Part shown: piece after piece, positions 12,237-64,000 of the stretch
Layout of the letters: each line of letters starts with the position of its first letter
Numbering within the stretch: the first letter of the stretch is position 1
Origin: Schmidtea nova
Taxonomy: Eukaryota
DNA length: 64,000 bases
Assembly (NCBI GenBank): GCA_044892505.1
Contig: CM097882.1
Location: 218,674,001-218,738,000, forward strand
Direction of reading: 5' to 3'
Made by a program: the position numbers and the translations under genes
The notes under the pieces: model-generated
The model's database searches: none
What the model saw: only the letters and a program-made list of their open reading frames with translations
Told to the model about the DNA's origin: nothing

Positions 12237-12664
12237 CCCAATACCCCCATATATATTACGTAATCACTCGGGGTTTGTATAGTACATATGGTTACGTAAT
12301 CATTATATAATCAAGTGTGCTTAATAAAACCCGATAATTACGTAATTCATATATAATTACATAATTACATATATTTGTTAAAATTGAGTGGATTTTTTGT
12401 TTAAATTAAGAGAAATTTTGTTTTAATTAAGCGAAATTTTGTTTTATTTAACTGGAATATTTGTGTTAATTAGATGACTTTTTTGTTTTTATTATTTAAA
12501 AATATGAAATTTTATTTAAAATTTAATAAAAAAGAATATGAGCTCACACATGGGGGGCGGCAGACCGCTCACTACCTCCTACTACAAAACTTCAAATGTC
12601 TTTTTTGAGTCGATAAACCGGCCCGATCGAGTTTTTAGTGAAACAATAGATAGACAGAATTTAA

Positions 12665-14400: not shown

Positions 14401-14882
14401 TCATAGACTAATGAAAATTATAAAAGTTTTGTGTGTGTTATTGGCAATTCTAATGTATTTTATCAAAATTAATTAAAATAATTTTTATAACTGACGTAAT
14501 TATTGAAATGTAATATAATTTATTTGTAATTTACTGAACTATTTAGTCTAATATATTGTAATAATATGACATGCATGCAATTCATTGAAATTTTTTATAA
14601 CTTTGATGCATATTATAAGTTGTTGAAATAACTTTTAAAGTTTTTTAAAATATTGCAACGTAATATATATTTAGTCATAATTCTCTATCATTTTCTTGAA
14701 CTTGATTTGATGATAATAATATCTTTACTGCCTCTTACTCGATTCTGATTGGCTAATAAGAATAAATTTCCTACTCCTTACTCGATTTTTATTGGTCAAA
14801 GGTTATGTGTGTGTAATAACTTTGATATATAAACAATACCTTTTCATTCATTATTCACTTTAACAAATAATAAACATTTAAA

Positions 14883-17120: not shown

Positions 17121-17140
17121 TATAATAGACAATATAAATA

Positions 17141-18033
17141 TGTTGGGGGAAAATCGATATTGTAATTGAGATAGCATTCTGGAGTTCGGAGAAGAAAAAC
17201 GAAAAGCAAAAAAGTGGGAAATGAGGAAGGAATAACAAAAGAAAAGAAACTCAACAACAAAGAGGAGAAAGGTCACTTATAATTAATAAGTGCAAGAAAA
17301 TAGAAAGAAATTCTGAAATTGGAAAACAAAAACAAAACACGAAGACAAACTGGTATCTTGACAGCTGTCAAAGATAACATGGGAGCTATAAAAAGTATAG
17401 GAAATGCTAAAAGCAGAAATGAAAAAAAAACAAATTATCCCGAATGCCGAACTGCCAGGGGCAACATGGGAGTTTAAAAAAGAAAATGGAAAAGGCCAGA
17501 GACAGAAGTGGGAAAGGCGAAGTGTCATGAGTGGCGAACTATAAAAGCAAAAGCCATCTTAACTAAATCAGAAATCAAGTGTGTTAAATTTGGATTGAGA
17601 AATTGCGCGATAATTGAAAAACGGTAGAAGATTTAAATTGTATTGTAGAGAACCGAGATCGAGATAAATTAATTGAACGGTGTAAAAAAATTTGGATTGA
17701 ATAAAAGAATAAGAGTATAGTTGATTAAGTCTAGTCAAAGTACAAGGGCAATCGAAGCAATTACCCAATTGTTGAGTCAATCAGCGGCGAGTGATTATTA
17801 AAGTACTTGGTTGTTATACACGTGGAGCTATTCCTGACGAAGTGTTGCAATAAACTCCGTATAATTGCCTACTTGAGTGTTGAATCAATCGTTTTGTTAT
17901 AATTCGTGTAATTAACTGTGATAATCAATAATGGTTTATATATTCTAAGAATTGTTATTTTGTGGATCAAATAAAGCACACTTTGGAGTCAGAGATTTGA
18001 TTGGTAACTTTTACATTTCACCAACAACCCAAT
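17141..18033 (+). mobile_element. Solo LTR-like element just downstream of the truncated pPolB copy
   Basis: Starts TGTTGGGGG, ends CACCAACAACCCAATA. Homologous to 6957-7743. Confidence 0.6.
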
Positions 18034-21250: not shown

Positions 21251-21899
21251 AGGAAAATCCGCAATTAAACGAATAATATTACCAGCTCTAATTTGGCGAA
21301 ATTTCTCTTTCCAATAATTAGGTACCCACACACGACTTCAAACTAAATAACAGAAATAAAATTGGATAATTTAAGTTGAAAAATTTTATACTTACTGAAA
21401 TGAAAATTGGCTGCAGCTTATTGTGGGGAATCTCTTTTCTAAAAATAATTATATAAATCAATATTCTATTATATAACAAATATTATCATGTTAAAATTTG
21501 ACCAATCAGATTTGGATACTGAAATTTATTAAACTCATACATAAAAATACTATATAGTATAATTAGACATAAATTCCTCATATTCCTAATATGATATTTA
21601 AAATTAAAATTTTGTATGTTTAAATAATAAGAAAAACTGGAGGGCATAAAACTTATAAGTTTTATATAATAGCCGTGGCCTGTAACTAAGGCCTCGACAA
21701 GAATTTAAAACCCGAAAATTTTCTTAAAATTAAATCTTCATATAAATTCAACTAAGATTGCACTTAAGATAATGAGTAAAATTTTTTTGGATAATTTTCA
21801 TTTAAAACCTATAAGCGCTTTAGTCGCATAACTGTTTTGATTCGATTTGAGGACAAAATCTGATAAAAATGGTATGACTGTCGAAAATATTTAAGTTTT

Positions 21900-22475
21900 A
21901 TGAATGTAAAATGGACGGAATGTATGGATAGGTGCGATTTAAATTTTTTTGCTGTTACAGAAAATAAAAGCCAAAATCGAAGAGATATTGAAGCGAACTA
22001 TGGAGAATGCGCGAAGCAATTGGCGGTTCGACGTCAGGCTCGCCGACATGGAAGAAAAGCAGAAAGTCGCAGGGATCGCCATGCACATATGACAATCCGC
22101 ATGGAGAAATTTCGGTCCCACTGTCGATCAGTGGAAGCGACCTGGACCAAAAGAGAAGGTATAGACAAACTAAAAAGACAAATCCAGATCCTACAACAGC
22201 AGTCTGCTGAAGACGCCAATCAACTACAGGTATTCAAAATGCTGGTGAAAGAAAATGACACAATAATAACAAAAATGCAGACGGAAAATGACATTATTTC
22301 AGCCGTACTGCCCAAAGAGACTCTTTCCGAATTCAAGTTGTTCTCCCTCCGAGCCGAAGACAAACTGCCTATCGTCCAAAATACTGAGAGGCCGAAACGA
22401 TGGAAGCCAAGTAAAGGCGTTCGAGCACGCCACAAAAGAAGACAAGAAGCCCCGCACACTGGGGCAAATATGTAA
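21900..22475 (+). CDS. Uncharacterised ORF, homologous to the repeated multi-ORF element at 24700-26380 and 52655-54800
   Basis: ATWTKREGIDKLK and MQTENDIISAVLP align with TTWFHPERVKDIQ / ETQTEEILTPI and RTWFSPERTKKIL / ETQTETMVSSV. Basic C-terminus. Confidence 0.5.
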   Translation: MNVKWTECMDRCDLNFFAVTENKSQNRRDIEANYGECAKQLAVRRQARRHGRKAESRRDRHAHMTIRMEKFRSHCRSVEATWTKREGIDKLKRQIQILQQQSAEDANQLQVFKMLVKENDTIITKMQTENDIISAVLPKETLSEFKLFSLRAEDKLPIVQNTERPKRWKPSKGVRARHKRRQEAPHTGANM

Positions 22476-22789
22476 GACGTGCATCGAATCGATCGATCTT
22501 AATGTACTCTGACTTAAAAATAACAATTTGTGATAAAATGGGGTGAATTTTTGTGTTTTCTATACATTATTCATTGTACTACTCGGTTTGCACCAAATGC
22601 ATTGTGAATTATAATTTCTCTGCATATAAATTGATTTTCTTTATTATTAATTATTGTAATAGAAGTAATTAACAGTAAATATATGAATTTTACTAAATTG
22701 GAGTCGTAGAACTCCAATAAAGATTTTCAACTAACTTTAATGGAAGAAAATAATATAATAAATTATATTAAGGGACTTAAAATGGGTGC

Positions 22790-23010
22790 TAAACCTTCTA
22801 TCGGTAGCCCTTGAACCCATTTTGATGTTCGGTCAATCAAAATTTTGAATTTTTGACGCTCACTGTTTGCGAAAATCCACCCTTTTGTTGCATTACCAAC
22901 GTTACATTGTGACGGGAAATAAGATGATTAAGCTTATGTTTTATGTGTTGAGTTGTTGATAGGAGCCACAGTAACGTCAATGTCATATTGAAGGTCAACA
23001 ACCCACCAAT
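22790..23010. repeat. Dispersed repeat; copies at 28262-28476 (direct) and 6900-6955 (inverted, partial)
   Basis: Shared aaccttctatcggt...gaacccattt.gatgttcggtca...atgttttatgtgtt.agttgttgat...gtcaacaacc. Confidence 0.75.
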
Positions 23011-23066
23011 TTTAATTTTGGAAGAATCGAAAATTTGTTCTGGAACAATTTGTTTAAATGCAATAA

Positions 23067-24699: not shown

Positions 24700-26380
24700 G
24701 AGTGACATACCAAAAAATCGAGCAGTTCCGAGACAAATTCAAGCCACAGCGGAGCGCCACATGAGGGTATGGAGGCGAGGCCATCTAAATCTGGCTACAA
24801 TATCAGACGCTATTCAATACCATTTCCGAGTGAGATGGGAGTTTAACCTTCATAGGCGTATAATGGTTGAGATATGAATGATAATTTAAATTTAATTAAA
24901 CTTCTAGTATTAATCGATTTATTTTTTTTATTGTGTGATTAGATATCACTACATTTCTTTTTTTATACATTTAAACTTTTAACCTTCCTGGCCCAGATCA
25001 AGCTCAATTAGAACATCAGCAAACCCAAAGTGGTTTATTCAGCTGGAGGACGGAAATGCCATACCCCGATGGTTGTTAACGTTCATGGCGATACCGAATC
25101 AAGTATTACGACAATTGGGTTATATTCTGCTGGAGCAACCCAGATGCATCCGCACCGGAGAACTACGACCTAATGTAAATAGCCCCGGAAACCGAGATAT
25201 GAATCAGGGTCAATGGGCACCAGAAACCAAGTTATGGAAAATATTCATCCATGACGATAAATTGTGCTGGATTCCGTGCGCGGACTATTTCAACTCAAAT
25301 GGCACCCGGAAGGTAGATCGAGAATGTAATCAGGAATGGATCGAATTATGATGGACAAATATGCAAATATGTGTTATAAAATTGTGGCAGTGGAAGAAAT
25401 AAATAAATTGAGTTGTAAATTTCACGAGTTTCTTCGTTTGAATGATGAAATCTGCATGAAAGTTTGGTTGACTAGAATAGAAATGAGGTCCGAATAATTA
25501 AATATAGCCGAGGTTGAACTGAAGGGGTATGGACGGGTCGTCGAACATGACTAATAACTAATCGACCCTATAATTCTAGATGGATACGAATGAAAATGCC
25601 CCAAATACCGACGAAAGACGGCTATTATAGAAAAGAGTGAAAGTATTGGAGAGCCACGTGAAACGACAGGAGTCCGAGATAAACATGTTAAAAACCACCT
25701 GGTTCCATCCCGAAAGGGTGAAAGATATTCAACAACGTCGATATAGAGCAGAGAGAGCTCTGGAAGAGCAAGCTAGGGAGACAACCTCTGTCCGGTTGGA
25801 ACTAAACAATTACCTGTGAGTATCAACGCTCGAATTCGTCGAGCAACAACTACGGCCCTTGATACGAGCTAGCACCTTTAACCGTTGGGTGACGTTAACA
25901 AGCATAAATAGCGAGACCCAAACGGAGGAAATCCTTACTCCTATTGCGGAAATATTAAACGTAAACCCTAAGCCAGAAAGGTCAGCACGCACAAAACGGA
26001 TGAATCGCTTAGGCACGAAACGACCCCGAGAAAGGAGGGCGTATGCAGAGAGACTTGGGATCGAGATCGATCTACTGAGTGGACTAACCGAAAAGCAACT
26101 CCTTAATGTTATCAATACGGATGTTTTATTAAAATAAATAAATGTTTCGGTATTAAAAGTGTTGTCTTGTTATTGAATGAGGGATGTAAAACAATTGGGT
26201 GAATTATGGAATATATAAGTATGCACAATTCATTTGAGGGAGACCGGGAACCGAATGATAATTAACAAACCCTAGACGTAACTAAACTCGTATTAATAAA
26301 TTGGGACCGGAATAAAACCACACAGGTTTTCTATCAGTAGTGGTGGACCCGTGGATAAATGAGGGAATAGTAGCCGCAAT
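24700..26380 (+). mobile_element. Unrecognised multi-ORF dispersed element, copy 1 (degenerate)
   Basis: Collinear short frames homologous to 52655-54800 on the minus strand: AERHMRVW...FRVRW, TWFHPER, RERRAYAERLGIEIDLLSGLTEKQLLNVINT, and a conserved downstream non-coding block. Confidence 0.65.
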
Positions 26381-28476
26381 CATTCCACAACGTTGATACA
26401 TTTCCAACATGATGAGTAATTAGGGACACATCATGGGTATCAGCGGGAAAGCGTGTTTATGTTGGTGAGATTACCCTAATATTAACATCATATGAAATCT
26501 CAGTTGTAACATATATACCAACAGACCAGCATTAGTGATTTAAAAATGACTTTTTAGTATCAATTAAACAAAAGACTTTATTGAATTATTGTTAATGTAA
26601 GACTAATAATTACTTAAAGCAATGTGCCAAATTTTAATTAAATATATTTTAAGATTTAACCATACTTTATTTTCCAAAATCTCTACCAATCAATTGAAAA
26701 TAAAAGTTATTTTGAAATTCCCTCTAAATTTTATTTTAAAAAAATATTTAAAAACCAGTTTGTTTAAACACGCTAAATTTTCATCAAAATTTTATTATGC
26801 ACACTTTAAAATCAATCTAATGTTCGTTTACACACGCTATATTCCCGCGAAAGTTCATGTGCACACACTTAATTTCCACCAAAGTTCATGTACGCTACCT
26901 AATTTCTGTCAAAAGTTGGTTTACACACATCGAATTCCCTCTAAATCTAGTTTACACACACTGTAATCATTTTATCATAAATCTTAGGGGGAGGGGGATA
27001 AGAGCGCTAGATGTGACACATCAGCCAGCTCTGTTCTACGTTAAATGCGGGACACATTAAAGGTAATCTAATTAGATGTTTTCCTTCTTTCATAAAACAC
27101 TCAGCTAAATCACTAGGAGAAATAACCAACACACTGGTTATCAATGATTTACAACTATATTAACTTTAAATCCACCGAAGAAGCAAATCATTATAATATT
27201 TTTTTGATCATCCAAATTACAACATCGATTGGATAAAATTCCACAAAAGAAAATTTCCATCGATCTGACAGATAATGGGAAAAGGTGCACGTTTTCCATT
27301 GGTGAACGATAATTCGTATATAATAAATTCCCTAAATTCCCATTCACGGTTTTGTACTTGGTCGATACGTATTTATAAGAAAACGATGGAATTGAGAGAT
27401 CTGGTGGTTGTTTTGAGAATACCGAGACTCGTGAAATAATCTGGAAACAAATACGAATCCCTAACAATAAATGTGAAATAAATTTCGAGAATCAATAGAA
27501 ACAACTTACCATGAAAATTACGATAGAAACAACAGAACATAATTTACAAAGATAGTCACCTAAAATCAATAATATATATTATAAGTAAATATTTATTTAT
27601 TAGCATGTTTGGGGGGGAACTATATAGATTTTAAAACTCTTTTCCTTTTACTGCCTCAACAATTTAACGTAAGAAATTAAATACATAATAAAATCCCAAA
27701 TTATCTATATAATTCTTTATCTTAAAGATAGACTGAGCGGCAGAAAAAAGTTTTAGGATCTAGGCAGCTGCCTGTTACTGAGGCCTCGGTAAAAATTTAA
27801 AAAATATTTTTTTTGTAAATTTTATGGTTATTTAATTGGAGTATAATTTTGAATAATAACGCCAATCGATTACCTTAGTTGACGCTACTGAAACTCAAAT
27901 AGACTACCAATTAAATTTAATACACTCTAAAACCAAATACTATGGATAGACGATGCTGATCGATTAAACTAACACCCGATCCGATCGGGCTGGATGAAAT
28001 AAAAACAGAGACAAATCTTTAAAATTCCGAATAATTTCAACACTTTTGGAACAAATGATTTTGATAATTTTGTTTTGTCTATTTTTTGTGCTGTGTATTT
28101 GGAAGTAATTCTCGAGAAAATCAAGAATTATCGATGTTTGATCGTTTGATTTGATATTAATAAATTTTTATTGATGTAATTATTTATTTTGGTTTTCTGA
28201 TTTATAGCCTTACTGAATAGTTATAGATTATTTAACTAGTATTGGGACAAAATAGGCAAAGAACCTTCTATCGGTCGCATTTGAACCCATTTCGATGTTC
28301 GGTCATTCATAGTTTCGATTTTTCGACTATCACTGTTTTCGGGCATTCACCCATTTGTTGAATTAACAGCGTTACTTTTTAGCGAGCAACAAGATGGTTA
28401 GTTAATGTTTTATGTGTTAAGTTGTTGATGATGAGCCATAGCAACTTTAAAGTCATTTTGACTGTCAACAACCCAC

Positions 28477-46324: not shown

Positions 46325-49300
46325 CATAGAAACAAAAACAATTGACACTGATTAACCCACGATAAAGAAAACTGACGAAATAACAACACTTATTTATGTT
46401 ATGAATACCCTTTATAAAAGTTGTCTAGAGTGTTAATTTATTTAGTTATTTGTTTAGTGAGATTAGTTGAATGATGATGTATTTATTGGTATGTCGTTGA
46501 TGTTTGTTGTGGAAGATTGAAAAGCCCAACAGTCTCCAGTAAAACTTGTGTTGGGACTGTTTGGGTGAATGCAATGTATTTTTGTGTGAATGCGTGCTTG
46601 TGTATATTATGAATGTATCAACTAATTAAATAACAAGTGATTGGAATAACCAAAAACAACTTTAAAAAAACAATTTTTATTTTACCAAATATAAGAACAA
46701 GTAATCCTTACTCACTGTGAATAAATCAAATAATAAATAAATCTTCTTATTTTCTGTTTAATTTTCTTTTGTAATTTTTCTTTTTCCTTGTTAGAAATTT
46801 TTTTAAATCTTCAATTTCATTTTTTAAATCTTATTTATTATCATTTCCTTATCTCTTTGTCAATTAATATAGTTATGCTTTACTATAGGAATTGAATATT
46901 TTGATTTGAACTTTTTTTAATTATACTTTTTTATTAGTTTTCCACCATAACAATAATTTTTTTTGGAAAACAATAAGAAAACATAGCAAAGGAGAACATT
47001 AAATGGGGGGGTTTAAAACCAAAAATCAAAAATAACGCAAGTACACGAAATTATCATAATTGATAAAAAATAATAAGTGGTTCCGATCAAGCACACTTTT
47101 TTTACACAATTTACTTTTTATGTTACTTGTTTTTTTGTTTTTTTGTGATTTTGGCAGTTTTTGCAAGTTTTGACGTAGTTTTTAATTTCCGTCATCATGT
47201 TTGGCCAGATGTGTCTGTTGTGGATCATGTCGAAAGTTGCTCTATTTCCAGGATGACTGATGTTTTGTACTTTTGATATGCAGATATTCCTGAATTCTCT
47301 TGGTAGTAAAAGTCTTGGCTAACTTTCATTACTGAAATCGTACTAGACTTCGTTGATCTTTTTGATTTTCGGGCTATGCTTTGGTTATAGTTCCTTGAGG
47401 GCTTCTTCTTGTTTATTTTTAATCTGCTCCGATTCGATTAATTCGCCGAATTCGAGTGAGTTGATGTTTGCTTCTATCCTTGATAGCGTGTCTGCTGCTA
47501 TATTTGCTGTTCTTGCGATGTAAACGATTGTGCAATTGAACTGTGAGATGAAGTTCAATTGCCTTATTTGTCTTGGGGATGGGCTTTTAATATGTATTGC
47601 ATTAATTAGTGGTTTGTGGTCTGCAAGTGTTGGAAGTGTTTTATGGCATCATAGATTGCGAGCAGTTCTCGGTCGAAGGTTGAGTACCTTATTTGGTGTC
47701 TTTTTAGTTTTCTTTAAAAAGAACCCAATCGGCTGTTTGCCGCGTTCGTTTTTTTGATATAAAGTCGATCCCATTGCGAATCCTGAGCAGTTTGTAGCCA
47801 AATTGTAGTTTAGTTATGGGTTTGGGTATCCCAGTAGTGTTGCTTGGGATAAACTATTTTTAGCTTTCTCGAAGTTTTTCTTTGATTTTTCGGTCCAGAC
47901 GACTTTTACAATTATTTTTGTTTTGATAAGGTCATTTAGAGGGACCAATAGTTTGCTGCAGTTATGAATGTATGAGTGGTAAAAGTTTACCATTCCCAGA
48001 AATTGTCTGAGTTCTCTGTTTGTGTTAGGTAGTTTGAACAGTTGGACTGTGTTTATTTTCTTTTCTATTGGCTTTGTGCCTTTTTCGTTTAAGGTGTGTC
48101 CTAGGAAATTTATTAATATTTTTTGAAATTCACATTTTTGAATGTTTATTTTGAAGTTTGCGAAGTCTAGAGTCTGAAATACCTTGTCGATATCGTTTAA
48201 ATGTGTTTCTTTGTTCGGACTTGTTATTAGAATGTCGTCCAGGTATGCGATTGTGTTTTGGTTGTCTTTCCGTGTTTGATCCATGAATCGTTGGAGCGTC
48301 GCAGCTGCATTTCGTAAACCGTATGGCATTCTGTTGTATTCAAACATACTGATTAATGTTACGATTGCGGTCTTTTTAATGTCTTTTTTCCTGATTGGGA
48401 TTTGATGGTAAGTTTTTTGAAGGTCTATTTTGGAGAACTTTGCTCTTTTAAATCTATTGATTATATCTCTTATTATTGGCAGGAGGTAGTTGTTTGGCTC
48501 TGTGATCTTGTTTAACATTCTGTAATCATCACAAGTTCTCCATTCACCGTTTGCCTTTTATTTGAGCATTATCGCAGATGACTAATCCGAGTTTGAATAG
48601 GTTACTATATTGTTGTCGATTAGTTCTTTGAAGATCTCTTTCGTTATCTTTGTTTTTTCTGGGTCCAGTTGTCTGACTTTAGAGTGTACTGGATTCTCGT
48701 TTGTAATGATTGAGTGTTCGGCTGGATGTTTTGATTCTTCGTCGAATTTTGCTGGTTCGATGAGTTTGTCGTATTTCTTGAATAAAGCGGTTATCTCAGG
48801 ACCGTGATTTGTTGTTTTGCTTGATTGGTTGTTTTTTACGCCAACCTGTATTACGCCGATATCTACCTTTGACTTAGACAGAGTTATGATGTTTTGATGT
48901 TGGTGCAGTTGGCTGCTGTTACCGATTTGTCTCTGTTTTGGGGGTTTCTTTTCGAGTGGCGGGGTAATATTGAGACTACAGAACCAGTGTCGATTAGGAA
49001 TTATGTATTGCTTGTGTGCACCGCGAAAGTTTTGTTTATGTTATGAAATGTTGGTGCAATCAGTGGTGACTTTTTTTCCTGCTTTGTTTTGTTGTAGCCA
49101 CAAGGGGCGTTGCATTTGTGTGTTTTTTCGTCAAATCTGTTGTGGAAATAACAGTAGTTTTCCTTTGTGGAACTGCTCGTTGTTGGTCTCTTTGGACTTT
49201 TATTTCCAGTTCAGTCCTTCGAGTTTGTTCTGTTTCTGAATAAAATGTTGTTTCTGTAGTTGTTTTGGTTGTCATTATATCGGTTTTGCTTTTCTCTTAG

Positions 49301-52038
49301 GTCGGCAAGTTCTCTTTTGATTAAATTGTTTTCGATAACGATTTTATCTAATTTTCCGATTACTGTTTGTTATTTTGTTTTTTCATCCTTTATTTCGTTT
49401 TCGTAAGTTGTTTTGTTTTTGTTATTGTTTGAGGCACTGTAAATTGTTGGGTATGTCTCTTCATTTATTTTGTCTGCTATTTCGGCGAGTGTCTCGACGT
49501 CGGAGCTGTTGCTAACTGCCAGAATGCGCCTGATTTCGGTAGACATTGCTATAAAAACTCTTTTACCAAATTGTTCGATCCTTGGTTGGTAAGTTTGGGC
49601 TGTTAGTATTCGAGGTTTTTTGAGCTGCCTTAAAAAGTTGCTGGGTTTGATATCACCTAGCTGTGTGTTGTTTAAACACGATTCTAGCCTTTGTCTGTTG
49701 TTTATTTTGTTTTTGCTCAATAGTATGTCGTAAAGTTTATTGTAGGAATCTTCTTCTTTTGATATTTTATCTATGTGACCTGCTATTTCACTTGATTTAT
49801 TGTAGGGTAGTGCGGCTAGTATGTGGGAATATAATGTGTTTGGTGATTTGATTCCCATTAAGGCTAAAGTTAATTTTGAATAAGTCTAGCCATTTTTGTG
49901 AGGTTCCGTTTTCATCAATGAAATATGTAAGTAAGCAGCCTTTTGGGTCTGTTATTGAGTTGACTGTATGTGTGTTGCCTGGGTTGTGGTTGAATGAGTC
50001 CTCGTTTGGCATGTTAAGGTAGTTTGGGTTTAGTGTTGTTTTTTTAGTTGCTGGAAGGGCTTAATAGCCATTTGTTTGTTTAATTAATTGTTTGTTTTTA
50101 TTGTTTGTGATGTGAAAAAATTTAGGGTGTTTGAAGGTTATAGCCTACTGTGTTTGGCTAACACAGAACCAAACAAAGAATACAAATACCTTCTAACAAT
50201 AATAGAAAGGAAAACAAACTGGTTCGAGATAATTCCGTTAAAAGAAATATCAGCAGAAAACATTTGTATCAACATCAAGTTCAATTGGATAGCCCGCTAC
50301 AGTCAATCCAAAATACTGATAACGGATCAAGGGAAAAAATCCGAATCAGAACTATTCGGTACTCTGTGTACAAAATACAATATAAAACGAAACTGAACAA
50401 CCACTTACAACCTACAAGCAAACGGAAAAATCGAAAGACTGCAGAGAACATTAAAAGAAAGTATCAGAACAAAAGCAGACGACAAAAATTGGTTAACTCA
50501 ACTCCCAAGAATCTTACTAGGACTAAGAAACACACCGAGCTCAACTGAAAACGAAAGTTCAGCATACAAACCTACCTTCCCTTAAAACAAACATAAAAGA
50601 CAACGGAGAAACAAACAAACAAATAATAACAAAAAACATTGAAAACATAGAAAACAAACCAAAAGGAATATTAAATAACTAGACCAAATTCAGAGTATGA
50701 CGGCAAGATAACACTAACCACCGGTTATTTACTTATAAAAAACCATATACAAAAGGTTTCGAAGTAAAATACGAAGGCCTATTAAAATTACTCGAAATTA
50801 ACATAAACGTGGCCACAGTAAATAAAAACAACAACAAAATAAGAATAAATCTACGAAGGACAAAACCAACTCACCACAGCCCAAAACTCCAAGGCAACCC
50901 CTTACACAACGAAACCTTAACAAAGAAAAAGCACATAACATTCAACAGCAAAAACGCAATAAAAGAATTTGACAAAAACGGCATTATCACCCCATACAAA
51001 AAGCTATACAGCGAATGCCTCAAGCAATACAACACTACATAACATAGAAAACAAAAAATCTCAATGTAAAATTTTATATTTTTTTTATTGTTATGATGTA
51101 GTACATAACTATACACCAAACAAAATACATAAAAAATACATACATAAAAATTGTGTATTGTAAATATTTTATCATTGTAAATACTTTATTCCTAATGTAA
51201 AAATTGTAAAATTCACATTTGGATTTATTATGTTAACCCCCGGTTTTAACCGGGGAAGTTGTGTATTATGCTTGATCGGAACCACTTTTTATTTTTTTAT
51301 CAATTATGATAATCTCGTGTACTTGCGTTATTTTTGATTTTTGGTTTTAAACCCCCCATGTAATGTTCCCCTTTGCTATGTTTTTTATTGTTTTCCAATA
51401 AAAATTATTGTTATGGTGGAAAACTAATAAAAAAGTATAATTAAAAAAAGTTCAAATCAAAATATTCAATTTCTATAGTAAAGCATAACTATATTAATTG
51501 ACAAAGAGATAAGGAAATGATAATAAATAAGATTTAAAAAATGAAATTGAAGATTTTAAAAAATTTCTAACAAGGAAAAAGAAAAATTACAAAAGAAAAT
51601 TAAACAGAAAATAAGAAGATTTATTTATTATTTGATTTATTCACAGTGAGTAAGGATTACTTGTTCTTATATTTGGTAAAATAAAAATTGTTTTTTTAAA
51701 GTTGTTTTTGGTTATTCCAATCACTTGTTATTTAATTAGTTGATACATTCATAATATACACAAGCACGCATTCACACAAAAATACATTGCATTCACCCAA
51801 ACAGTCCCAACACAAGTTTTACTGGAGACTCTGTTGGGCTTTTCAATCTTCCACAACAAACATCAACGACATACCAATAAATTCATCATCATTCAACTAA
51901 TCTCACTAAACAAATAACTAAATAAATTAACGCTCTCGACAACTATTACAAAGGGTATTCATAACATAAATAAGTGTTGTTATTTCGTCAGTTTTCTTTA
52001 TCGTGGGTTAATCAGTGTTAATTGTTTGTGTTTCTATG
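46325..52038. mobile_element. Rearranged Gypsy element: gag-RT-RNaseH-integrase N-terminus on minus, integrase core on plus, bounded by ~780-bp inverted repeats
   Basis: Repeats 46325-47108 and 51260-52038 are near-identical reverse complements. Minus: gag (49370-50012), RT (YLDDIL, 47814-48518), RNase H (YSTFDRELLAIY, DHKPL), integrase zinc finger (SHPG...IWPNM...CKNCQ, 47110-47280). Plus: YKYLLTIIERKTNW, TDQG, QANGKIERLQRTLK (50160-50560). Confidence 0.9.
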
Positions 52039-52654
52039 TACTCAAATAATGTTTCGTTGCCGTGGTTACATTTAATAGCTAGTTTATTTGAACTTTTGAT
52101 ATTCAATTTGATTGATCGATATTTCTATAATTCACATTCATTGATGCCTTGGTTCTGACATAATTTTCGAAGTTCTATGAAATATTTAAGCTCTTTGTAT
52201 TCTATCCTCATTCTTTCACTGATTTCATTGTAGTGTTAAGATTAATTAATTATCCGTTAAATATAGTAATGTTCCAGATAAGCTAGTCAATATGACGTGT
52301 AGTTAGATGTTTTCAGGGGAAATTTTGGATCTTCTTTCAGTTGTTTTTTAAGAAATCTGATTAGCTGTTGTCGTGTTGAAAAAATTTTCTTCTGTATTGT
52401 TTATGGGTAGGGTGTTCATTTAGAGACATAAGAAACTTATCTTGACTAGTTATTTCTTGTTGATGTTGACGCCTGTAATGAAATGATATATCGTATTACA
52501 GGATATAGTTGTCATTGTTCATCATTATCAATTTTTATACTTTTTATATTATTTTTCTAATACCATATTTCTATGTACAATATTTACACGGTACTCATAC
52601 TACTTTTATTACAGTATCAACCTTACGGTGATCAATTACGGTGATCAACCTTGG

Positions 52655-54800
52655 TGGTTACTATTGCCCTATTAACCCTACGGGTCCACCACTGTTGATA
52701 GAAGACTTGTGTGGCCTTCTTTCGGTTCCCTTTTCGTCTCTAATTAGACTTATTCATTTATTTACACACCATGCTATTCCATCATACATTCCATACATAC
52801 AAGAGAACAAATCAATATAACTCCATACATATATTCATCCGATAAAAACACTCGTGTTGATGACCTTCACCAATTGACTTTCCGTAAGGCCACTTAGCGG
52901 GTCCATCTTGATGCCCAGCTGACTGGCGAAGGCTCTACGTTCCCGCCTCCTCTTTGCACTTAGTCGGTTTCGTTTCTTCAATTGGTTCCCTGTTAGATCC
53001 TTTATCGGAGTAACCCCGCCATCGGCTTTTGCTACCGACGATACCATCGTTTCTGTTTGGGTTTCAATACTCGCGCACCTCGATTGCGCCCATTTTTCGA
53101 AGGTGTCCGACGTATCTGACCCCTTAAGTGAGTTTCTATAACTCCCTAGTGGCGGCTCTCAAACATCTATTTAGTTTCAACTTTGTGGCTGCTAGCTCTC
53201 TCGTTTGTTCGTCACTGAATGCACAGCTCGATCCTTAGATTTTAGTATCTTTTTAGTGCGTTCCGGACTAAACCACGTCCTTTTGATCTCCTCTTGTTCC
53301 CGCGCCTGCCGAGAAACAGGACCTCCGAGTAATTGGACTTGTCTCCTCAACTGTTTCTCGTCATCCATGTAGGCCTTCTTGCTGGAATTTTTCATCATTA
53401 GTCGACCTTATATATAATACGTAATAGTGCCCTATTGATATTTATCTATCAATTTACCCGCCCGGTCTAATTTTATCCTAATGGTTCAATCATGCTCTCC
53501 AGCTAACCCACAACAAACTCAATAACAAAGCGCCGTTATATCATACATGTATTGAAATCTATCACACCAACAAGATCATGCTGTCAATTTTTTTAATTTT
53601 CTCTATCACGTTGGCGTCTGCGTCTTCTGTCCAATCTTGAAAGAACTCACTGTCCTTCCGAGGCGCTCCATTGGCGTGTTAGAAAGACGGGTTGGGTTGC
53701 CAAAATAACTTTCTGTCATACAAGAAAATCTCCTGAAATCGAATTGAGGCTGCCCATGGGTATCGTGAACTCCACTCTTCTCTGAACCACCATGGCAGGT
53801 TCGGATATTGGATTGCATTCCCGGTGTGGATATTGCGAGGTTTATCCATCAAAATATATCCCAGTCTCTGTAGTTGTAGGGTCAGGATTTGTCGAAAATG
53901 CAGGAGCTATCTCGGAATTCCTTCTTCTTCCTAGAGCTCCATGAACCAATGTCGGTTCTTGCGATAGAATTGAATTCTGGGAGTAGGTCATGACGGATCT
54001 CCTTTCCATCGAATGCAAAATTGATTACGTCCCCATTGATTACCATCTTTGGGTTGTTCAAATAAATGCCACCAGTGGTGCATGTGCCTAGCCGCTTCCA
54101 TCCGAACGTCAATTGGCGTTGGTTCGAAAGATTTCGGTAATCCGGTAATTAACTCCATCCTCTGCTTCGACCTCAACATCGTTCTTATTAAGATAACTAG
54201 ACCTACAGATAATATAGCGATTAAATTTTACCATCAGTAATACAGGGTTAGATGGTATTCCCCCAACCCTCATCATAGCTTCATTCACCATCCTGCAATC
54301 ATCGTCACTTGCTTCATACATACCATTTCACGCATTCATATTTCGAACTTTGGTTTAGACATTCATACGTCAACTTTTCGGAATGCAACCTTCCACGCAT
54401 CTTCTACAATCACTGCGGATCAACAACTGTTCATTCACGTTCCACCCGATCACTATAATAAAAAATTCATTTACTTCCATTATCAGCGCATTGTTAACTT
54501 TCGCCCTGAACATTTAAACAGGTGGCTCTAACCATACTCTTACTCGTGAGCAACCAACCAATTCCGTGAATAATTCGTCGTTATATTCGTTTATTGTAAT
54601 TGCTCTGTCGATGTGGGATGTTAGCATCGCAATTTATTTGTGACAGCTGTTAATCAAAGATTTACCATTTCCGGCCACCGGATTACTCGTTGTGGCTTCC
54701 TCAGTTATTCCCAATCATTGGTCATCAAAAATCCAACCAGCATCTCACCTCAACATCTCACGAAAACAACCTGATTCGTTTCGTCATGCATCCGACATTC
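52655..54800 (-). mobile_element. Unrecognised multi-ORF dispersed element, copy 2 (degenerate)
   Basis: ORFs 53988-54179, 53192-53398 and 52835-53047 align with frames in 24700-26140; shared downstream non-coding block at 52655-52730. Confidence 0.65.
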
Positions 54801-55894: not shown

Positions 55895-56560
55895 ATTCCA
55901 TAATATCCTATTCAAAAGATCGACCCAAAATACTCTATTCAAAATAACCAGACTAAAAATCCTATACAAAAAATCCAGACCAAAATTCCATGTACAAAAG
56001 TACCAGACTAAAAATCCTATTTAAAAATACCAGACCAAAAATCCCTGTTCAAAATCCCTATACAAAATTTTAGAGTCTCTTTTTGCCCGAAAAAAATCTG
56101 GGAGTAGAAAATCCTATTCAAAAGATCGACAAAAATTTCCTATACAAAAGATCGACCCAAAATTCTATATTCAAAATAACCAGACTAAAAATCCTATACA
56201 AAAAATCCAGACCAAAATTCTATGTACAAAAATACCAGACTAAAAATCCTATTTAAAATTACCAGACCAAAAATCCCTGTTCAAAATCCCTGTACAAAAT
56301 TCCAGAGTCCCTTTTTGGCCGAGAAAAAATGTCGGAGTAGAAAATCCTATTCAAAAGATCGACAAAAATTTTCCTATACAAAAGATCGACCAAAAAACAT
56401 AGTGGCTCCCCAACTCTTGTACAAAAGACCGACAAAAATTTTCATATACAAAAGATCGACCAAAAAACAGTGGCTCCTCAACTCACCTGTACAAAAGACC
56501 GACAAAAATTTTCCTATACAAAAGATCGACGAAAAAATATAGTGGCTCCCCAACTCACTT
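55895..56560. repeat. Tandem array of ~27-28-bp subunits in larger duplicated blocks
   Basis: Recurring cctat(a/t)caaaagatcgac and accagac(t/c)aaaaat; a block of about 240 bp is duplicated; three agtggctcc.caactc copies near the right end. Confidence 0.9.
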
Positions 56561-56608
56561 TTTTTCTAGGGGGGGTGGGGTGAGTTGGGGAGCCACTAAC
56601 TATCTACT
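56541..56608. other. Perfect 18-bp stem hairpin followed by a Polinton-like terminus
   Basis: agtggctccccaactcac (56541-56558) pairs with gtgagttggggagccact (56580-56597). Then aactatctact, which reads AGTAGATAGTTAGTGG on the minus strand. Confidence 0.6.
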
Positions 56609-58082
56609 TATACCGTTTCTATCGCTGGGAAAAACAAACTATTTATTATCGATATTTTTACAAAATATTTTATTACCAAAATATGAGGCACATGTTTTAG
56701 AGTCTAATGATATGCCTCATCTTGTAATTGGTAAAGTAGTTTACTCGAAACTTTGAGTTTAATGGAGATCGATAATCGACTCGTAAACACATTTCCGTAA
56801 AAGAATTTTATGGTAATTTGTTAGTTGAAAATAAATCTTGAAAAAATTAAATTTTTCAGAATAAACATGTCACAAGGATAATCGGGTACACTTCCTCCAT
56901 AAGTTGATGCAACAAAAATCCCCAAAAAAATTGAGTAACCTTATGAAAAACTATGATTTCTGCAAAAAAAGTAACATTTTGCACATTTTAACACTTAAAA
57001 ATCAATAGTTGCACTTTAAAATAATGTGCAGAACTTTAAAAACATTGGCACTTGAAAATATTCAGTAGCACCCTTTAACAAAAAGTTATACTTTTCTCTT
57101 AACTTTATTATTTTTCCTTCTGTGGTAATTTAAACAAAATATTTTGAAAAAATCAATAATCAAAAATTAAAACAAAAAAATATATGCCCCGGGGGTATTT
57201 GTTTGTTTAGATCAGCATGTGCGCGATAACTTCCAATACAAAAGTAGATCACATCCTCCTACTGAGGATAGAAATCTAACGTTTCAAGTCAAAATTTCAT
57301 CATTTACTGAAACAATGAACCCAATACAAACTTTATTCATATTTAATCAACAATGAATCAGACTCAATCGACGTCAACTCCGATAATCTGTCAACAGACA
57401 ATAACACAAAAGCTAAAGTGGTAAACTCAATGTGAAATATTAAGCAGAATGCTGAATCAAGCCCATGCACAATGGAGAAATGAAAAAGCGTTATTAACAG
57501 ATAGCGTAAACAGAAATTTATTATATATTGTGAAAATCGAATAACAACAACAATTGATAATTCTGAAAGATCAGAGATACGAATGGTTAACGAGACATCT
57601 AGTCTGGCAAACAAACGAAATTGGAAGATTAAACGAAGCAAGAGAGGAAGTTAGAGCATAGTATAATTGTTAAGAAAATTTTCCAGAACCGTTCCAAGAA
57701 CCCGACTCAACGGAGAGAGGATAAGCTGTTATAAAAAGCTAAAACCAGTGTAAATAAAAATGTGAATATGCATAAAACTTTGCATACAGAAAAAAACAAA
57801 CAATTGTAAAAATTATATTAGAATGCAAAATGAAAATCAACAAAAACAAGAAGAGTTGACCGAACTATACCAGATACTTCAGATACAACGAATAAAACAG
57901 ACAGAATTCGATGATAGATTTAAATGTAAATTGTGTAGAAACTTATTTATAGAACCCAGACAAACCGAATATCGATGTCAAATATGTACAAAGTTTGTAA
58001 TAAAGTAATTCAAACAAAACAAAACTATGTCCTGAATGTAGTAAAACAATAATAGACTAACTCGAACAAACGAAACTAGATA

Positions 58083-59546
58083 CATCTAATTCTGTTTTTA
58101 CGCGATAGATACGTTCCTCGAAAATTCGCTTAAAAAAAGATATAGTATCAATATAAAAGTATGGGATTGGTTCCGAATTTTCAAAATCAACCAAAATAAT
58201 GTTATTAAAATATACAAATTTATATTTTTAGGTGTTTTACAAATTTTATATTTTATATAATATTAAAGAACAAACGAAAAAAATGATAAAAAATACTAAT
58301 TTAACGAAAAAAATTCATTATTTAACAAAATATCACAAAAAATTCATTTTAATAAAATAAAAAATGTCAAAATATATTATAAAATATATTTTTTAATTGC
58401 TGTCACTTCCTGATGATATACGCATTCGTTTATGTGAGACTTGAACGTCACTGTCATCACTAGAAATATTTGCAACTTCATTTTCATGTTCAAGTGGTGT
58501 TGATGTTTCAGCTGTTTTGAGTTTAGTAACAAATTCAGTTATCAATCGTTGTGTTCATTGACCGTGGTTTCAGTGCTCGATTTACAAGTAAAGGTTTCAG
58601 CATTCGATCTCCTGAAGCGTTAGAACATAATAAAAAGGTCACGCGATCCTTGGCTACTTTAAACACACTTGCAATTTTTCGAGATTTGGCTACGTATGTT
58701 CTGCTCGGCATTCTTTTCCAGAAAAGGCCTGTTTCATCTGCATTACATACCTGATCCGGAGTGTAGCCATGTTCTTCAATTATCTTAGCCAATTTTTGGG
58801 GAAATGCTTTAGCTGCATCCTCATCAGCAGATGAAATTTCACCCCTAATTTTTATATTATGAAGCACGTGCCTTTGGCCTGATGTTTGTGGTTCCATTTC
58901 TTTCATCTGCTTATAAATTCGTAATGCCATCTTCTTTATGCCATTTCCGTCAACAGGTATCCGTTTTTGTGAGCAATCCTCCATCCATATTACAAGAGCC
59001 TTCTCCATTTTCTCTTTTACAGTGTCTCTTGTGTAAAATGTTGTATGAGCACTCATATTTGTTCCAGCAATCACAGATTTTCTGATAGCTTCTTCATTTC
59101 TTTTTATAGTTCTTATGGTTGATTCTTTTAAATTAAAATATTTCCCTACAGAAGTGGCACCTTCTCCAGTGGCTAGTCTATCCAAAATTTTGATTTTAAT
59201 TTCCAAAGAAATAGCTTTTCTATTCTTTTGTTTTTTTAGCTGACATTAATGTAAATAATTAAAGATTTGTTGATAAATTATATTTAAATAAAAACTGCTT
59301 CGGTAATAATTTGTCTTTAAAATGGCGAATTAATCAATTAAATAATAACGACAACTATAAATTAGTTAATTAAATATCCCTAACAATTATTAATTGTAAT
59401 GAGGTTCCTATAAAAAAAAATTATTTGCATGTAATAAATGAATGGACTTAAAATTATAAATTTTTTGCATCGCGTTAAATCAAATCAAATCGTGTAAAAA
59501 CAGAACGAAATAATTTTGTTGAATCGCGTAAAAACAGAATTAGGTG
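58083..59546 (-). mobile_element. pogo/Tigger-type DNA transposon, internally deleted
   Basis: TIRs catctaattctgtttttacgcga / tcgcgtaaaaacagaattaggtg with TA duplication. ORF 58535-59206 has HTH-psq, a CENP-B-like helix and DDE_1 start (QVCNADETGLFWKRMPSRTY, KDRVTFLLCSNASG). Confidence 0.95.
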
Positions 59547-60326
59547 TATTGCAATGAATATGGAGATGATGAACGCAGCAACAACCTGTTCAAATAAGCC
59601 ATGTGTACGGAATGGCCGACAAAGTGGATCACAAAACACCTGTATAAATGTGATGATACGAAAGCCAAATCTAAGTGGTGTGAAGAGGAGATATGGAAAA
59701 GATGCAAAGACAATCATGAAAAATCGTGCGAAAAGAGACAAGAAACTTGTGAATTTTTTAATGAAACAGACGTTTGGATAGTACTAAAAATGAGCATTGG
59801 AATGCAGAAGAAGGTCAAATATATGAAGAAAAATGTAGTCAATGTGGAACGCTAGAAAAAGTGAAGTTGAAAGAACATTGGGAAATATGCAAAAGGGAAC
59901 CACTGGCCTGTCCTTTAAAACTATTCAATTACAAATGAGACTGTCCAAAGAGAAAATGCATAAGTATGTGAATTAAAACAGTGTAAATACTTTGAGAACA
60001 GTTGTTGAAGCTACTAGAGCAACCGCGTTGGTGATTGGAAAAACAAACACGGAAATAAAATCACAAAAAATCCTGATAAAAGAAATGTTAGATACAAGAG
60101 GAAGTTTCGAGAAAATAAAAGAGCAAATGATCCAAAAAAATTTGTTATTATACCAGAAAGTAGCAGAAATACTAACAATCTAACAAAGATTCGAAAGTAT
60201 CCTCCCAACAATGGAAGAGTTACCAGTCACACCATATTATTGGAAAATTACAGAATTCACAGAGAAATCGAGAATAGCAAGAGAAGGAGGTTAATGCGTG
60301 TGGAAAAGTCCACCTTGCCATAGTTG

Positions 60327-61365
60327 CAGAGCCGGCTCAAGGTACCGGCAAGCCGGGCGGTTGCCCGGGGCGCAATCTTGCTTGGGGCGCCATCAAGATT
60401 CTTCTAAATAAAATTTTGATGTGAGCAACGAAATAGAAAGTTTTTTTAAACTGCTAAATTAAAATTGTGAAATACAGTGATTGATTTATTTGTGAATTGT
60501 GAATGATTAATTGCGGATTATTGTTTGTGATTTTCTTATTTTTTATGAATAGATAAAAGTCTTTTAAATATAAATTGGTGAATTAAAATTGCAAAATACA
60601 GTGTTATTTTTTGTGAATTATTTTTTGTAATTGCGAATTAATGTTAGTTATATAAATCACTTTAAAAATAATTATTTTTCAAAGGTAATAATTTAAACTT
60701 TTTGAATTATTTTTAAATCAAACGAAACATCAAAGTGATATTTTTTTCACTTTTTGTAATCAAAAAATTGTAGAGTTTTACTTTCTGGTTATTACTTAAT
60801 TATTTGATTAATATATTTATAAAGACTAATTTTAAAAATTCATCTAAATTTGTTTATAAGATGCAATAAGTTTGCTATAAACCTGTTGTAGATACGACAA
60901 ATCAAGAATTATATGAAACCATAATAGATTCTCTGAAAGAATTTGACCTAAATTTGGATAATTGTAGAGGGCAGGGCTATAATGATGGCTTGAACATGAA
61001 AGGGAAAAACAAAGATGTACAGGCGCGCATAATCAAAAAAAATCCTAGAGCCTTTTTTATACAATGTGGATGTCATAGCTTGAATTTAGTGGTTGGTGAT
61101 AGTGCAACAAGTTGCCTGGAACCAACTTCTTTTATTGGTACTATCTTTTCTTTGATTTTATCGCGAAAACCAAAATAATAAAAAAATACATGAAATAAAA
61201 TTTAATTTGTTGCTAAATATTTAGCCGGGACACAAACAAACTGTAAGCGTTTTTTAGCCAAGACACAAACCAACATTAAAAAACTTTCGCCTGCGACGCT
61301 TTTTCACTACATAGGGCGCTTTAAATTTCTTGCCCTGGGCGCTGAAAACCATAGGGCTGGCCCTG
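60327..61365 (+). mobile_element. Internally deleted hAT transposon
   Basis: Termini cagagccggc / gctggccctg. 8-bp TSD CATAGTTG / CATGGTTG. Transposase fragment CRGQGYNDGLNMKG...NPRAFFIQCGCHSLNLVV. Confidence 0.93.
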
Positions 61366-61879
61366 CATGGTTGGAGAAATGGTTACAAACTTAGACTTAA
61401 AGTATATCTAAAAGGAGACGGAGCAGGAGCCAGAACTCACTTATCAGTATATTGCCAAATATGCAAAGGAGATTATGATGATTGGTTTAAATCGGCTATG
61501 AGTACGACACAGCCGTAAGAGTTGGATTGAAGGAGTGCAGAATTTGTGGGGTATTCAGACCAAGCTTAAAATACTCGAACGCGGCTCACAAAAAAACGAT
61601 TGGAAACGACATTGTAGATATAAAAGATCCACGTTTTGTTGCAATAGATTTATTAACTGTAGAACAACCACTTTATTTAATAAACAACACCCCGTATCTG
61701 AGTATAGAAACGAAAAAACCTTAGTGAAGGTGAAAAATTGTAAATATGTTTGTATTAAAATGTAGTAAAATAAAAAGTTTTAAAAAGCATAAAAAAGCAT
61801 AAAACCAAAAAAACACAAAAATAAGAAAAACAAAAATTTGTAAATATAGAAAACAAAAATTGTGAAAATTTTAATGGAG

Positions 61880-63010
61880 AAAATATTGTAGATATGACGG
61901 AAACAATGATCGGAAGGAAAATCATAAGGAAACGAGATGATAACAGATAATTCAAATGTTTTGTGTGAATTAATAAAAACAGATAGAAGATAAACATGGA
62001 ATCCAATTACCTCAGAGATCATTTATTATAGATTTTCACGAGTAATACCAAATGTACCCAAGAAAATAAATCATGGAGAATTGAAAATTATTGATGAAAC
62101 CTTGAGAAGCGAAAGTCGAAGATATATAACCTTTTGGAAACAAGATTATCAGTACAGAAAGTTCGACAAAGATGGCTTATATTTTGCGGGAACAATTGAG
62201 AAACCTGATAAAGTAATTTGTAGATTTTGCAGAATGGAAAACTTTCACCAACATGCCCTTTTGTATTAAAGATATGCGATAACCCAAAAGAAACATCAAC
62301 CATAAAAAATGAAAAGGAAGGAAAAATCAATATAACAACGGTAAAATCAACAGGCCCAGGAGAAATACGATTCATAGCATTTGATCCGAGAGAAACAATT
62401 AATGGAAGAGTCAATACCTTTGAAGACAAAAAGATGGGTATCAGATTAGCGATAGAAGAATTCGATGCAATAAACGAATCAATCACTGAATGTTCAGAGT
62501 GTGGAATCCAATTACAGTTACCAAAAGAGGAAGGAGAATACTTGAAATACAATGAACATTGTAAATTTGGAGAAGAATTATATGAAGACGAGGAACCGAT
62601 CAACTACAAAATCCCAGAGATGATTTTCAGTGAGACATTAGTAGAAAAGATATTGGATTAACTACGAACTCAAAAAGCAATGCAACGTAAGGGTAAGATG
62701 AAATATTTATGAGAGAGGTAATTAGAGAAAGATTGAGAAGGAATGAAGACATTTGAATCAACTTTGGAATTATTTAAAGTAATTATACAATTTAGAATAA
62801 AATCCAAACTCTTCAACCCATAATCATGTATCAAGAAAGTCATATTAAATAAACATCCATGTTCAGTCTGTTCGATAAAGAAAGTGGAAGTAATCCACTT
62901 ACCATGTGAACATCTATTAGCATGTGAAAATTGTAGCAATGAACTGACATTGTGATCAATGTGTAGAAAAGCAGTCGACAAACGGGTCAAAGGATTCCGT
63001 TATGCCGATC
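61880..63010 (+). pseudogene. Intronless inhibitor-of-apoptosis-like gene (BIR, degenerate BIR, C-terminal RING)
   Basis: LRSESRRYITFW...GLYFAG...DKVICRFC...(frameshift)...SPTCPFV (BIR). GRVNTF...LA...ECSECG...EHCKF (degenerate BIR). CSVCSIKKVEVIHLPCEHLLACENC...MCRKAV (IAP-type RING, 62855-62990). Confidence 0.85.
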
Positions 63011-63167
63011 AATAATGTCATCCAACAAAACAACTTTGGAAATTTATTGTAAAGATTTTAATTTTCAAATCGATGTATACAAGTATTAATTTATTAGCAT
63101 GGAAACCAAAACGAAAACGAAAAGAAATTATGAATGTTATTATTATTCTAGAATGGACATGTAACAA

Positions 63168-63960
63168 TTGATTTACGTCTTGGATGAGGAAATAACCAAA
63201 AGACAAGAACAAGTAAAGTGGATGGAAAAGAATGAAGAGCAAATGGAAGAGCAAATGGAAGAGATCCAAGGAAACATCAAACTAGTCGAACAGAGAACCC
63301 AAGATTTCAGAAAGTTAAAAGAGGAAAATGAGGAATTACAAAAGATAATCAATGAAAAGGCACGAACCTAAATAGAACTCGAAAATCTAAAACTGGAATA
63401 TGGCGAAATGTAGGAAAAGCTCGAATATGAACTACGAAAAATAGTACCGCCGAAAAATAGATCATGGTTAAGAAAAGATGAGCTTGAAACGTATAAATGA
63501 TATATTGAAAGGAGAAATGAAAGTACGATATAATTTTATTAGCAAGAAATCGAAAACGAAAGGAGATGATATAAAGCCACAAAGAAGAAATGGGAAAAGT
63601 GTCAAGATGCAGAAAAGAGTTATGAGAAATTAAAATTATAGAAACATGAAATTATTGAAACAGAGATCAGAACCAGAGCAACCGACAATATTAAAGGAGA
63701 AATTTAAAAGATGTAAAAGAGAAACTGAACAGTATTATTAAGATATATTATTAAAGTATATTACACATGGAACAAGAATCTGAGACGATGGAAATAATTA
63801 AACGAGAAAACTACTTATTCCGTCAACAAAATTGTCTAACACAAAGATATTGCGACAAACAGAAACAAGAGATTGATAAACTCAAAAGAGAAATAAGCAG
63901 TGAGCAGAATACTGATAATAAAAGAAGAATTTAAATCGAATCGTTACAGCGATCACTGAA
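63168..63960 (+). pseudogene. Degenerate coiled-coil ORF remnants
   Basis: Glu/Lys-rich heptad-like frames (MEEQMEEIQGNIKLVEQ...LKEENEELQKII) broken by stops. Confidence 0.4.
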
Positions 63961-64000
63961 AGGTAAACAGAAAAAGATCATATATATATATATATATATA

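Follow-up and report, generated by a model that had tools for sequence, protein, structure and literature searches.

We analysed a stretch of 64,000 nucleotides from Schmidtea nova (GenBank assembly GCA_044892505.1, contig CM097882.1, positions 218,674,001 to 218,738,000 of the forward strand; the window in what follows), the right-hand end of which contains a TRAF-type gene, a gene of the inhibitor of apoptosis (IAP) family and coiled-coil open reading frames (ORFs). It is very probable, in our judgement, that this cassette belongs to a dead, 5'-truncated long terminal repeat (LTR) retroelement whose complete kin have no reverse transcriptase (RT), RNase H, integrase or Env, carry a TRAF and IAP pair under purifying selection, and probably depend for copying in trans on a related element of Burro type whose LTRs they share. 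The best reading of the element is that of a non-autonomous Burro satellite, the cargo of which likely promotes cell survival. The original prediction, made from the sequence of the window, had proposed a large DNA element or endogenous virus as a possible carrier; what we found is neither a large DNA element nor a Polinton or Helitron, but a Burro-type LTR retroelement that has lost RT and integrase.

The cassette is a dead copy of a mobile family

With the IAP DNA of the window as query, 1,309 first-look candidates were obtained in the 1.25-Gb genome, and 40 of them were scored, the 39 that are non-self having 77-82% identity. TRAF is found directly upstream of IAP in 28 of the 29 siblings fetched. 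Exact 28-mers were taken from young copies and counted genome-wide, with 1,130 occurrences for TRAF and 844 for IAP, while the reversed-pattern controls gave 0. The cassette is a broken, dead copy of a mobile family that has about a thousand copies in the genome, and the expectation that the two genes travel together, in further copies with shared boundaries, is borne out, the shared boundaries being LTRs. Most of the best protein matches are stop-free (98 out of 103, in a sample that is top-ranked and therefore biased); BIR1 is intact in 25 and the RING in 26 of 27 siblings.

The genes themselves are real. Translation, Pfam and open siblings confirm the RING, zinc finger, coiled coil and MATH gene, the IAP and the coiled-coil frames on the + strand. 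The broken TRAF gene (57823..61724, +; RING, TRAF zinc fingers, coiled coil and MATH, identified by translation, Pfam and sibling comparison) is left in three pieces (57823-58082, 59547-60326 and 61366-61724, all +), as it is interrupted by two DNA transposons that had gone unnoticed at first. The broken IAP gene (61894..63015, +; Pfam and sibling comparison) contains a BIR, a degenerate BIR-like motif, a UBA-like stretch and a RING, and the gap between the TRAF stop (around 61724) and the IAP ATG (around 61894) is about 170 bp, within the spacing of about 200 bp first noted. On the left the cassette starts inside a 215-aa accessory ORF (ORF215), preserved from about codon 54 on (57264..57731, +; tblastn identity to the sibling ORF 62-71%), and on the right it continues with the remnants of a 527-aa and a 192-aa coiled-coil ORF, fused by a deletion of about 1.3 kb (63153..64000, +). 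On the window itself Pfam recognises the MATH domain (E 1.6e-8) and the C-terminal RING (E 4e-6).

The coding strand of the cassette is purine-rich, as first noticed (62-64% vs 50% in the whole window), and the decay is indeed similar throughout: there are 4, 4 and 6 in-frame stops in the aligned codons of the TRAF, IAP and coiled-coil genes respectively, plus several frameshifts. A 46-nt deletion in the IAP takes out the BIR1 histidine. With these stops, the lost histidine, the two transposons in TRAF and the 5' truncation, the genes of the window are now dead. The window copy is 82-85% identical to all relatives tested whereas the identity among young copies is 97-99%, and for this reason we consider it old.

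The window copy follows the sibling layout from 57264 onward as far as the beginning of the 3' LTR, some 4 kb to the right of the window; on this side the element continues via two membrane-protein ORFs to the 3' LTR, of which only the start is kept. Its 5' half is missing, and no attributable remnant of the RING160 leader or of ORF1053 (see below) was found in the window, in 40 kb to its right and in 10 kb to its left. At 51954-52449 (-) there is what remains of a 484-aa ORF for a single-pass membrane protein that has neurexin-like Laminin-G/EGF features (Atlas score 0.95). In siblings this ORF is either directly upstream of ORF215 or in place of TRAF-IAP, and the remnant may be a displaced piece of the window copy. 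LTR-end fragments of the same Burro-type family are also present at 21867-23021 and 28158-28476 (+), the former containing an ORF that resembles one within sibling LTRs.

The first insertion within TRAF is a pogo/Tigger-type DNA transposon (58083..59546, -) with terminal inverted repeats, a TA duplication and the Pfam domains CENP-B_N, HTH_Tnp_Tc5 and DDE_1; it is missing from all siblings that span the site (26 out of 26). The second is a hAT-type remnant (60327..61365, strand not assigned) with an 8-bp target duplication that has one mismatch and a weak DUF4371 match, below the cut-off; it is missing from 28 out of 28 siblings. A third transposon insertion sits just past the window end.

Complete copies are LTR elements without reverse transcriptase

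Five young siblings were extended by 20-30 kb on each side, and three of them proved complete, one with a clear 4-bp duplication and two lying in microsatellites. These three are 24.4-27.7 kb long, and complete copies of this short type (24-28 kb) have LTRs of 3.8-5.4 kb with TG...CA ends that are 99.7-100% identical within the pair in all five complete short copies. A primer site complementary to the 3' end of the genome's tRNA-Pro(TGG) follows the 5' LTR. Clear 4-bp target duplications are present in two of the five complete short copies and in both long copies (see below), the complete copies without a clear duplication (3 out of 7) having AT-rich or microsatellite flanks. As steps of a mechanism, the complete copies are seen to be LTR-bounded, tRNA-Pro primed, multi-ORF elements with a TRAF-IAP cargo, and the near-identical LTRs together with the 4-bp duplications indicate that they inserted recently via reverse transcription and integration. 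The tRNA-Pro(TGG) genes form a tandem array with a period of 308 bp, their 3'-end pattern has 899 matches genome-wide, and the same tRNA is the primer of a second family described below.

From left to right the layout is LTR, tRNA-Pro primer site, RING160, a tandem repeat, ORF1053, ORF215, TRAF, IAP, the coiled-coil ORFs (527 aa and 192 aa), two ORFs with one membrane segment each, and LTR. The interior measures 13-17 kb and contains as many as nine ORFs, of which the majority are under purifying selection. ORF1053 contains SUMO-like, aspartic protease and ankyrin parts; ORF215 has no Pfam match, and the 527-aa coiled-coil ORF has no family by Pfam and low recognition in the ESM Atlas. RT, RNase H, integrase and Env are absent from the complete short copies, Gag is absent from the young copies, and no Polinton genes were found between the LTRs of complete siblings.

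The loss of RT is marked by a junction at which the protease is fused to the ankyrin part. It was checked in 10 regions containing 11 TRAF- or IAP-bearing copies, three of which are truncated upstream; the fused junction is present in all eight copies that retain the upstream region, and none of these has a Burro-like RT. Of the 39 non-self matches scored with the ORF215 region the 7 best were fetched: four join protease to ankyrin without RT, two of these with Gag remnants, and three are uninformative, while the 484-aa ORF is upstream of ORF215 in 4 out of 7. As their sequences are 81-85% identical to the window, these seven are to be taken as older relatives rather than as established sisters of the window copy. 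The protease-ankyrin junction is common to old and young copies.

An acceptor-like YAG stands just 5' of most cargo start codons, and on this ground the cargo ORFs may be expressed from spliced or trans-spliced RNAs. A strict, preset splice-acceptor pattern was found at 4 out of 8 ORFs vs 26 out of 376 background ATGs, and a looser one, chosen after the data had been seen, at 8 out of 10 ORFs vs 89 out of 376; both counts are weak evidence.

A long-type partner shares the LTRs

Exact LTR-primer junctions occur 2,097 times genome-wide. In a sample of the first 40, all on contig 1 and read over 10 kb each, ORF1053 follows in 30, Gag in 6, and 4 are uninformative, a ratio of about 5 to 1 in favour of the short form. 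The cargo slot of the 30 ORF1053 copies is variable: TRAF is reached within 10 kb in 16, the 484-aa membrane ORF occupies the slot in 5, the element runs straight to the coiled-coil ORF in 6, and the slot is not reached in 3.

When three of the six copies with Gag were followed further, each proved to have a single frame of 4,992-5,006 aa. Pfam applied to one of these polyproteins finds Gag, CCHC, MATH, a viral fusion glycoprotein (Env), protease, RT, RNase H, integrase, ankyrin and fn3, and does not detect BCL2 or dUTPase-like parts in that copy. BIR and the TRAF N-terminus are absent from the three long copies checked. A 28-mer from the RT occurs 213 times in the genome. ORF1053 of the short form corresponds to four collinear pieces of the long polyprotein at 33-61% identity, with the protease joined to the post-integrase region. 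Over their first 640 nt the LTRs of the short and the long type have 95-98% identity, which equals the closeness among short types. Both forms also have a common leader ORF, a BIR-less IAP remnant with 28% identity to the C-terminal part of the IAP. Co-packaging with recombination would give such a combination of old coding divergence and shared current LTRs, and we propose that Gag-Pol-Env of the long element packages and copies the short-type RNA.

A second Burro-type family was also found, with a TRAF 37% identical to the first, other LTRs and 57 junctions, in which RT, RNase H and integrase were lost at a different junction. Among 20 sampled members RT is missing in 12 and kept in 3, and RT-bearing members with a downstream TRAF exist. 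The second family lost RT separately from the first. Between the two families RT is 90% identical but the protease only 52% and the ankyrin part 27%, which suggests that modules have been swapped.

Selection on the cargo

We counted every variant once over 26 siblings and used the wrong reading frames as controls. The ratio of nonsynonymous to synonymous variants per site (pN/pS) is 0.33 for TRAF and 0.32 for IAP in frame, as opposed to 0.93-1.11 in the wrong frames; it is 0.15 for variants common to at least three copies and 0.50 for singletons. Pairwise ratios of nonsynonymous to synonymous substitution rates (dN/dS) against one open copy are 0.09-0.23 for TRAF and 0.10-0.62 for IAP. The window copy compared with an open sibling gives 0.21 (TRAF) and 0.24 (IAP), and its ORF215 remnant 0.20. 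In the junction sample, which is unbiased, the pooled values are 0.08 for TRAF (15 copies, partial gene), 0.14 for ORF215 (18 copies), 0.10 for the coiled coil (6 copies), 0.30 for ORF1053 (30 copies) and 0.43 for RING160 (38 copies). All these comparisons use a single reference and are therefore not independent of each other. The TRAF and IAP cargo is, to judge from these ratios, under purifying selection in the siblings.

There are a few points that speak against a satellite with a selected cargo and need to be discussed. Firstly, the singleton pN/pS of 0.50 is below 1, meaning that some singletons are lineage changes or that the method reads low in frame. Secondly, a 297-aa cargo ORF gives 0.36-1.0 among young copies; this also means that the method is able to return values near 1. 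Thirdly, the RT-less state of the window copy is read from its relatives because its own 5' half is missing. Fourthly, no Burro reference is found among the protein-search matches, and the assignment to Burro rests on architecture. Finally, the second TRAF family has members with RT (3 out of 20), which leaves some room for an autonomous carrier of the exact TRAF-IAP pair.

The last point can be extended to an unsampled autonomous Burro lineage that owns the cassette, the RT-less copies being its deletion products and their selection signal inherited. The coexistence of RT-bearing and RT-less TRAF members in the second family (3 and 12 of 20) would agree with this, as would the missing 5' side of the window copy and the small sample (40 out of 2,097 junctions). 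However, wherever the upstream region is preserved in the TRAF-IAP copies fetched, it contains the fused protease-ankyrin junction and no Burro-like RT; ORF1053, an ORF peculiar to the deleted form, is itself under selection; the junction is common to old and young copies; and the three long copies checked have neither BIR nor the TRAF N-terminus. We regard such a lineage as improbable and retain the satellite copied in trans.

The TRAF and IAP proteins and the TRAFs of the host

In a sibling the IAP has Pfam matches to BIR (E 3e-16), which fits the pattern Cx2Cx16Hx6C, and to a C-terminal RING (E 9e-11). Its best PDB match is cIAP1 (3t6p), over the BIR, UBA-like and RING regions, the UBA-like stretch being weak. 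The BIR-BIR-RING order given in the original prediction is correct as regards one canonical BIR and the RING, but the second BIR is only a degenerate motif without Pfam or PDB match. As compared to vertebrate cIAP1/2, the protein has no CARD, its second BIR is degenerate, and it is borne by a retroelement. Searches for database homologues of the IAP returned one unnamed match among 1,919 candidates, and none among 5 for the BIR region. The TRAF of a sibling matches MATH (E 8e-22), while its matches to RING (E 2e-4) and to zf-TRAF (E 3e-4) are below the respective cut-offs; its best database matches, over the full length, are fish TRAF3/5 at 21-33% identity. It differs from vertebrate TRAF2/3 in being carried by a retroelement. 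Direct binding between the IAP and TRAF proteins is conceivable, though we find it somewhat doubtful. From what is known of the two families, the IAP would inhibit or ubiquitinate caspases and the TRAF would rewire TNF/NF-kB-type signalling, and cells with active elements might survive better.

A query with fish TRAF3 gave 11 non-element TRAF loci among 30 fetched, with single open frames and mostly clustered. These low-copy host-type TRAFs have single open frames of 417-509 aa and are arranged in three clusters and one singleton. The lack of introns in the cassette's TRAF and IAP proves nothing as to a mobile origin, given that the host-type TRAFs have none either. A tree of full-length sequences groups the element TRAFs of both families in one clade (100/99), separate from the 7 host-type and 5 vertebrate-type TRAFs included; it is midpoint-rooted with long branches, two host loci were omitted for lack of a usable frame, and we draw no conclusion from it on donor or direction.

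A conventional host TRAF/IAP locus, or processed pseudogenes, could be argued for from the intronless and clustered host-type TRAFs, and such host paralogs had indeed been named at the outset as evidence that would favour it. LTR fragments lie near several of them, but ORF215, IAP and coiled-coil ORFs were found near none of 9 host-type loci within flanks of about 5 kb. With about a thousand dispersed copies within LTRs, and with the element TRAFs in a clade of their own (long-branch caveat as above), we consider the chance of a host locus practically negligible and reject it on copy number and LTR context, in line with the tentative view of the original prediction.

Polinton-type neighbours and other features of the window

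The cassette had first been described as starting close to a Polinton-like terminus. This terminus is real, at 56608, and a second one is present at 57263, but the cassette lies outside of both. Terminal repeat A (55902..56608, -) belongs to an unrelated neighbour whose genome-wide matches stop here, with the interior to the left; terminal segment B (56609..57263, -), found elsewhere as inverted pairs, abuts and truncates the cassette with its outer end. The two meet at 56608/56609, and the interior of both points left, away from the cassette. In one sibling, repeat A has an inverted counterpart at a distance of about 16.6 kb and a duplication of 6 bp, and pPolB was not found inside; one sibling pair of segment B surrounds a 1,425-aa pPolB frame. 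The end of segment B at 57263 is the exact point at which ORF215 homology starts (around codon 54), i.e. mid-gene. As the interiors lie to the left and end B breaks ORF215, the Polinton sequence cut into the retroelement and does not carry the cassette.

In favour of a Polinton, or of some other large virus-like DNA element, as the carrier of the cassette one can cite two Polinton-type ends at most 0.7 kb to its left, a further Polinton about 7-19 kb past the window end and others in or near several siblings. Such a carrier is nevertheless highly improbable: complete siblings have direct LTRs, a tRNA primer site and no Polinton genes in between, and the Polinton that lies inside a sibling is an interruption of the element. 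We reject it because the ends face away and the siblings are LTR-bounded.

Elsewhere in the window, inverted Polinton pPolB fragments are arranged around a 144-bp tandem array (8618-17169), and a small Gypsy-type gag-pol remnant lies within a 770-bp inverted repeat of 97.5% identity (46325-52038). Diverged copies of one repeat with short ORFs are found at 52700-54000 (-) and 24980-26350 (+), with tblastx identities of 32-62% and no Pfam family above cut-off. An intronless LUC7-family gene (2973-3974, +; E 9e-62) is probably a host gene.

Comparison with known elements and significance

TR-GAG and Dasheng are non-autonomous LTR derivatives that have two LTRs and a primer site, lack RT and integrase and move in trans, and in elements of the large retrotransposon derivative (LARD) type the interior is not known to contain selected protein-coding genes. 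Acute transforming retroviruses are replication-defective and helper-dependent, with replicative genes replaced by host-derived signalling genes. The helper dependence and the signalling genes in place of replicative ones are similar in our element, as an analogy only, since the latter is endogenous, long-lived, Gypsy-type and multi-gene, has about a thousand germ-line copies, and shows no evidence of transformation or infection.

The closest known relatives are the giant Gypsy-like LTR elements Burro/GYPSM1. The consulted portion of PMC6431247 describes planarian Burro elements that are present in thousands of copies and combine MATH/TRAF, BIR, ankyrin, SUMO-like, BCL2 and env parts; in one species there is also an accessory ORF that encodes MATH. 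Multi-kb LTRs, very high copy number, accessory ORFs beside a polyprotein and MATH/TRAF, BIR and ankyrin cargo are common to those elements, as there described, and to ours, the long partner of which has a polyprotein of about 5,000 aa (Gag-MATH-SUMO-Env-PR-RT-RH-IN-ankyrin). The differences are that the short form lacks RT, RNase H, integrase and Env, has no Gag in young copies and is in the majority, that a full TRAF adjoins a BIR-UBA-RING IAP, and that the long form has no BIR. MATH/TRAF and BIR cargo in Burro is already known from that account, and the claim of a novel system was overstated to this extent. The LARDs discussed in it likewise have two LTRs and a primer site in common with an autonomous partner, no RT or integrase, and movement in trans; their interiors are seldom longer than 10 kb, as opposed to 13-17 kb and up to nine mostly selected ORFs in the short type (pN/pS 0.08-0.43, five ORFs). 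According to a passage in PMC13465017, citing Lee 2026, a Burro1 BIR-RING protein (B-IAP) shields stem cells from caspase-mediated apoptosis; ours is also an element-borne BIR and RING protein, but lies in an RT-less form downstream of a TRAF. Burro is under piRNA control (PMC8532177, cited portion) and is mentioned only in passing in the part of PMC11410931 consulted. We found no description of an RT-less Burro in the literature searched, which did not extend to Grohme 2018 and Lee 2026, both possible prior accounts. What appears to be new is an RT-less majority form that carries a selected, full TRAF-IAP pair in a swappable slot, along with a likely helper that has no BIR.

Non-autonomous elements are usually regarded as parasites that play no active part and whose interiors decay or do not code for proteins. 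The short form to which the window copy, itself no more than a fossil, belongs is the majority, and it has kept its signalling genes under purifying selection over recent and old divergence. This raises the question whether selection on a trans-acting survival gene in a thousand copies works via host benefit, a few source copies or cis preference. The finding extends the reported mutualism of the Burro1 IAP and may explain part of the TRAF/MATH expansion that the available part of PMC6109357 reports in planarians. We also speculate on a retroelement with two genomes, in which the rare, BIR-less long partner gives Gag, Env, RT and integrase, the numerous RT-less partner gives TRAF and IAP from a swappable slot, and each depends on the other; this further step we think rather unlikely. 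If it is true, the pair may be the source of a RING-type IAP for the stem cells of this animal; such IAPs are nearly absent in the flatworms sampled in PMC13159474, as far as the excerpt consulted shows.

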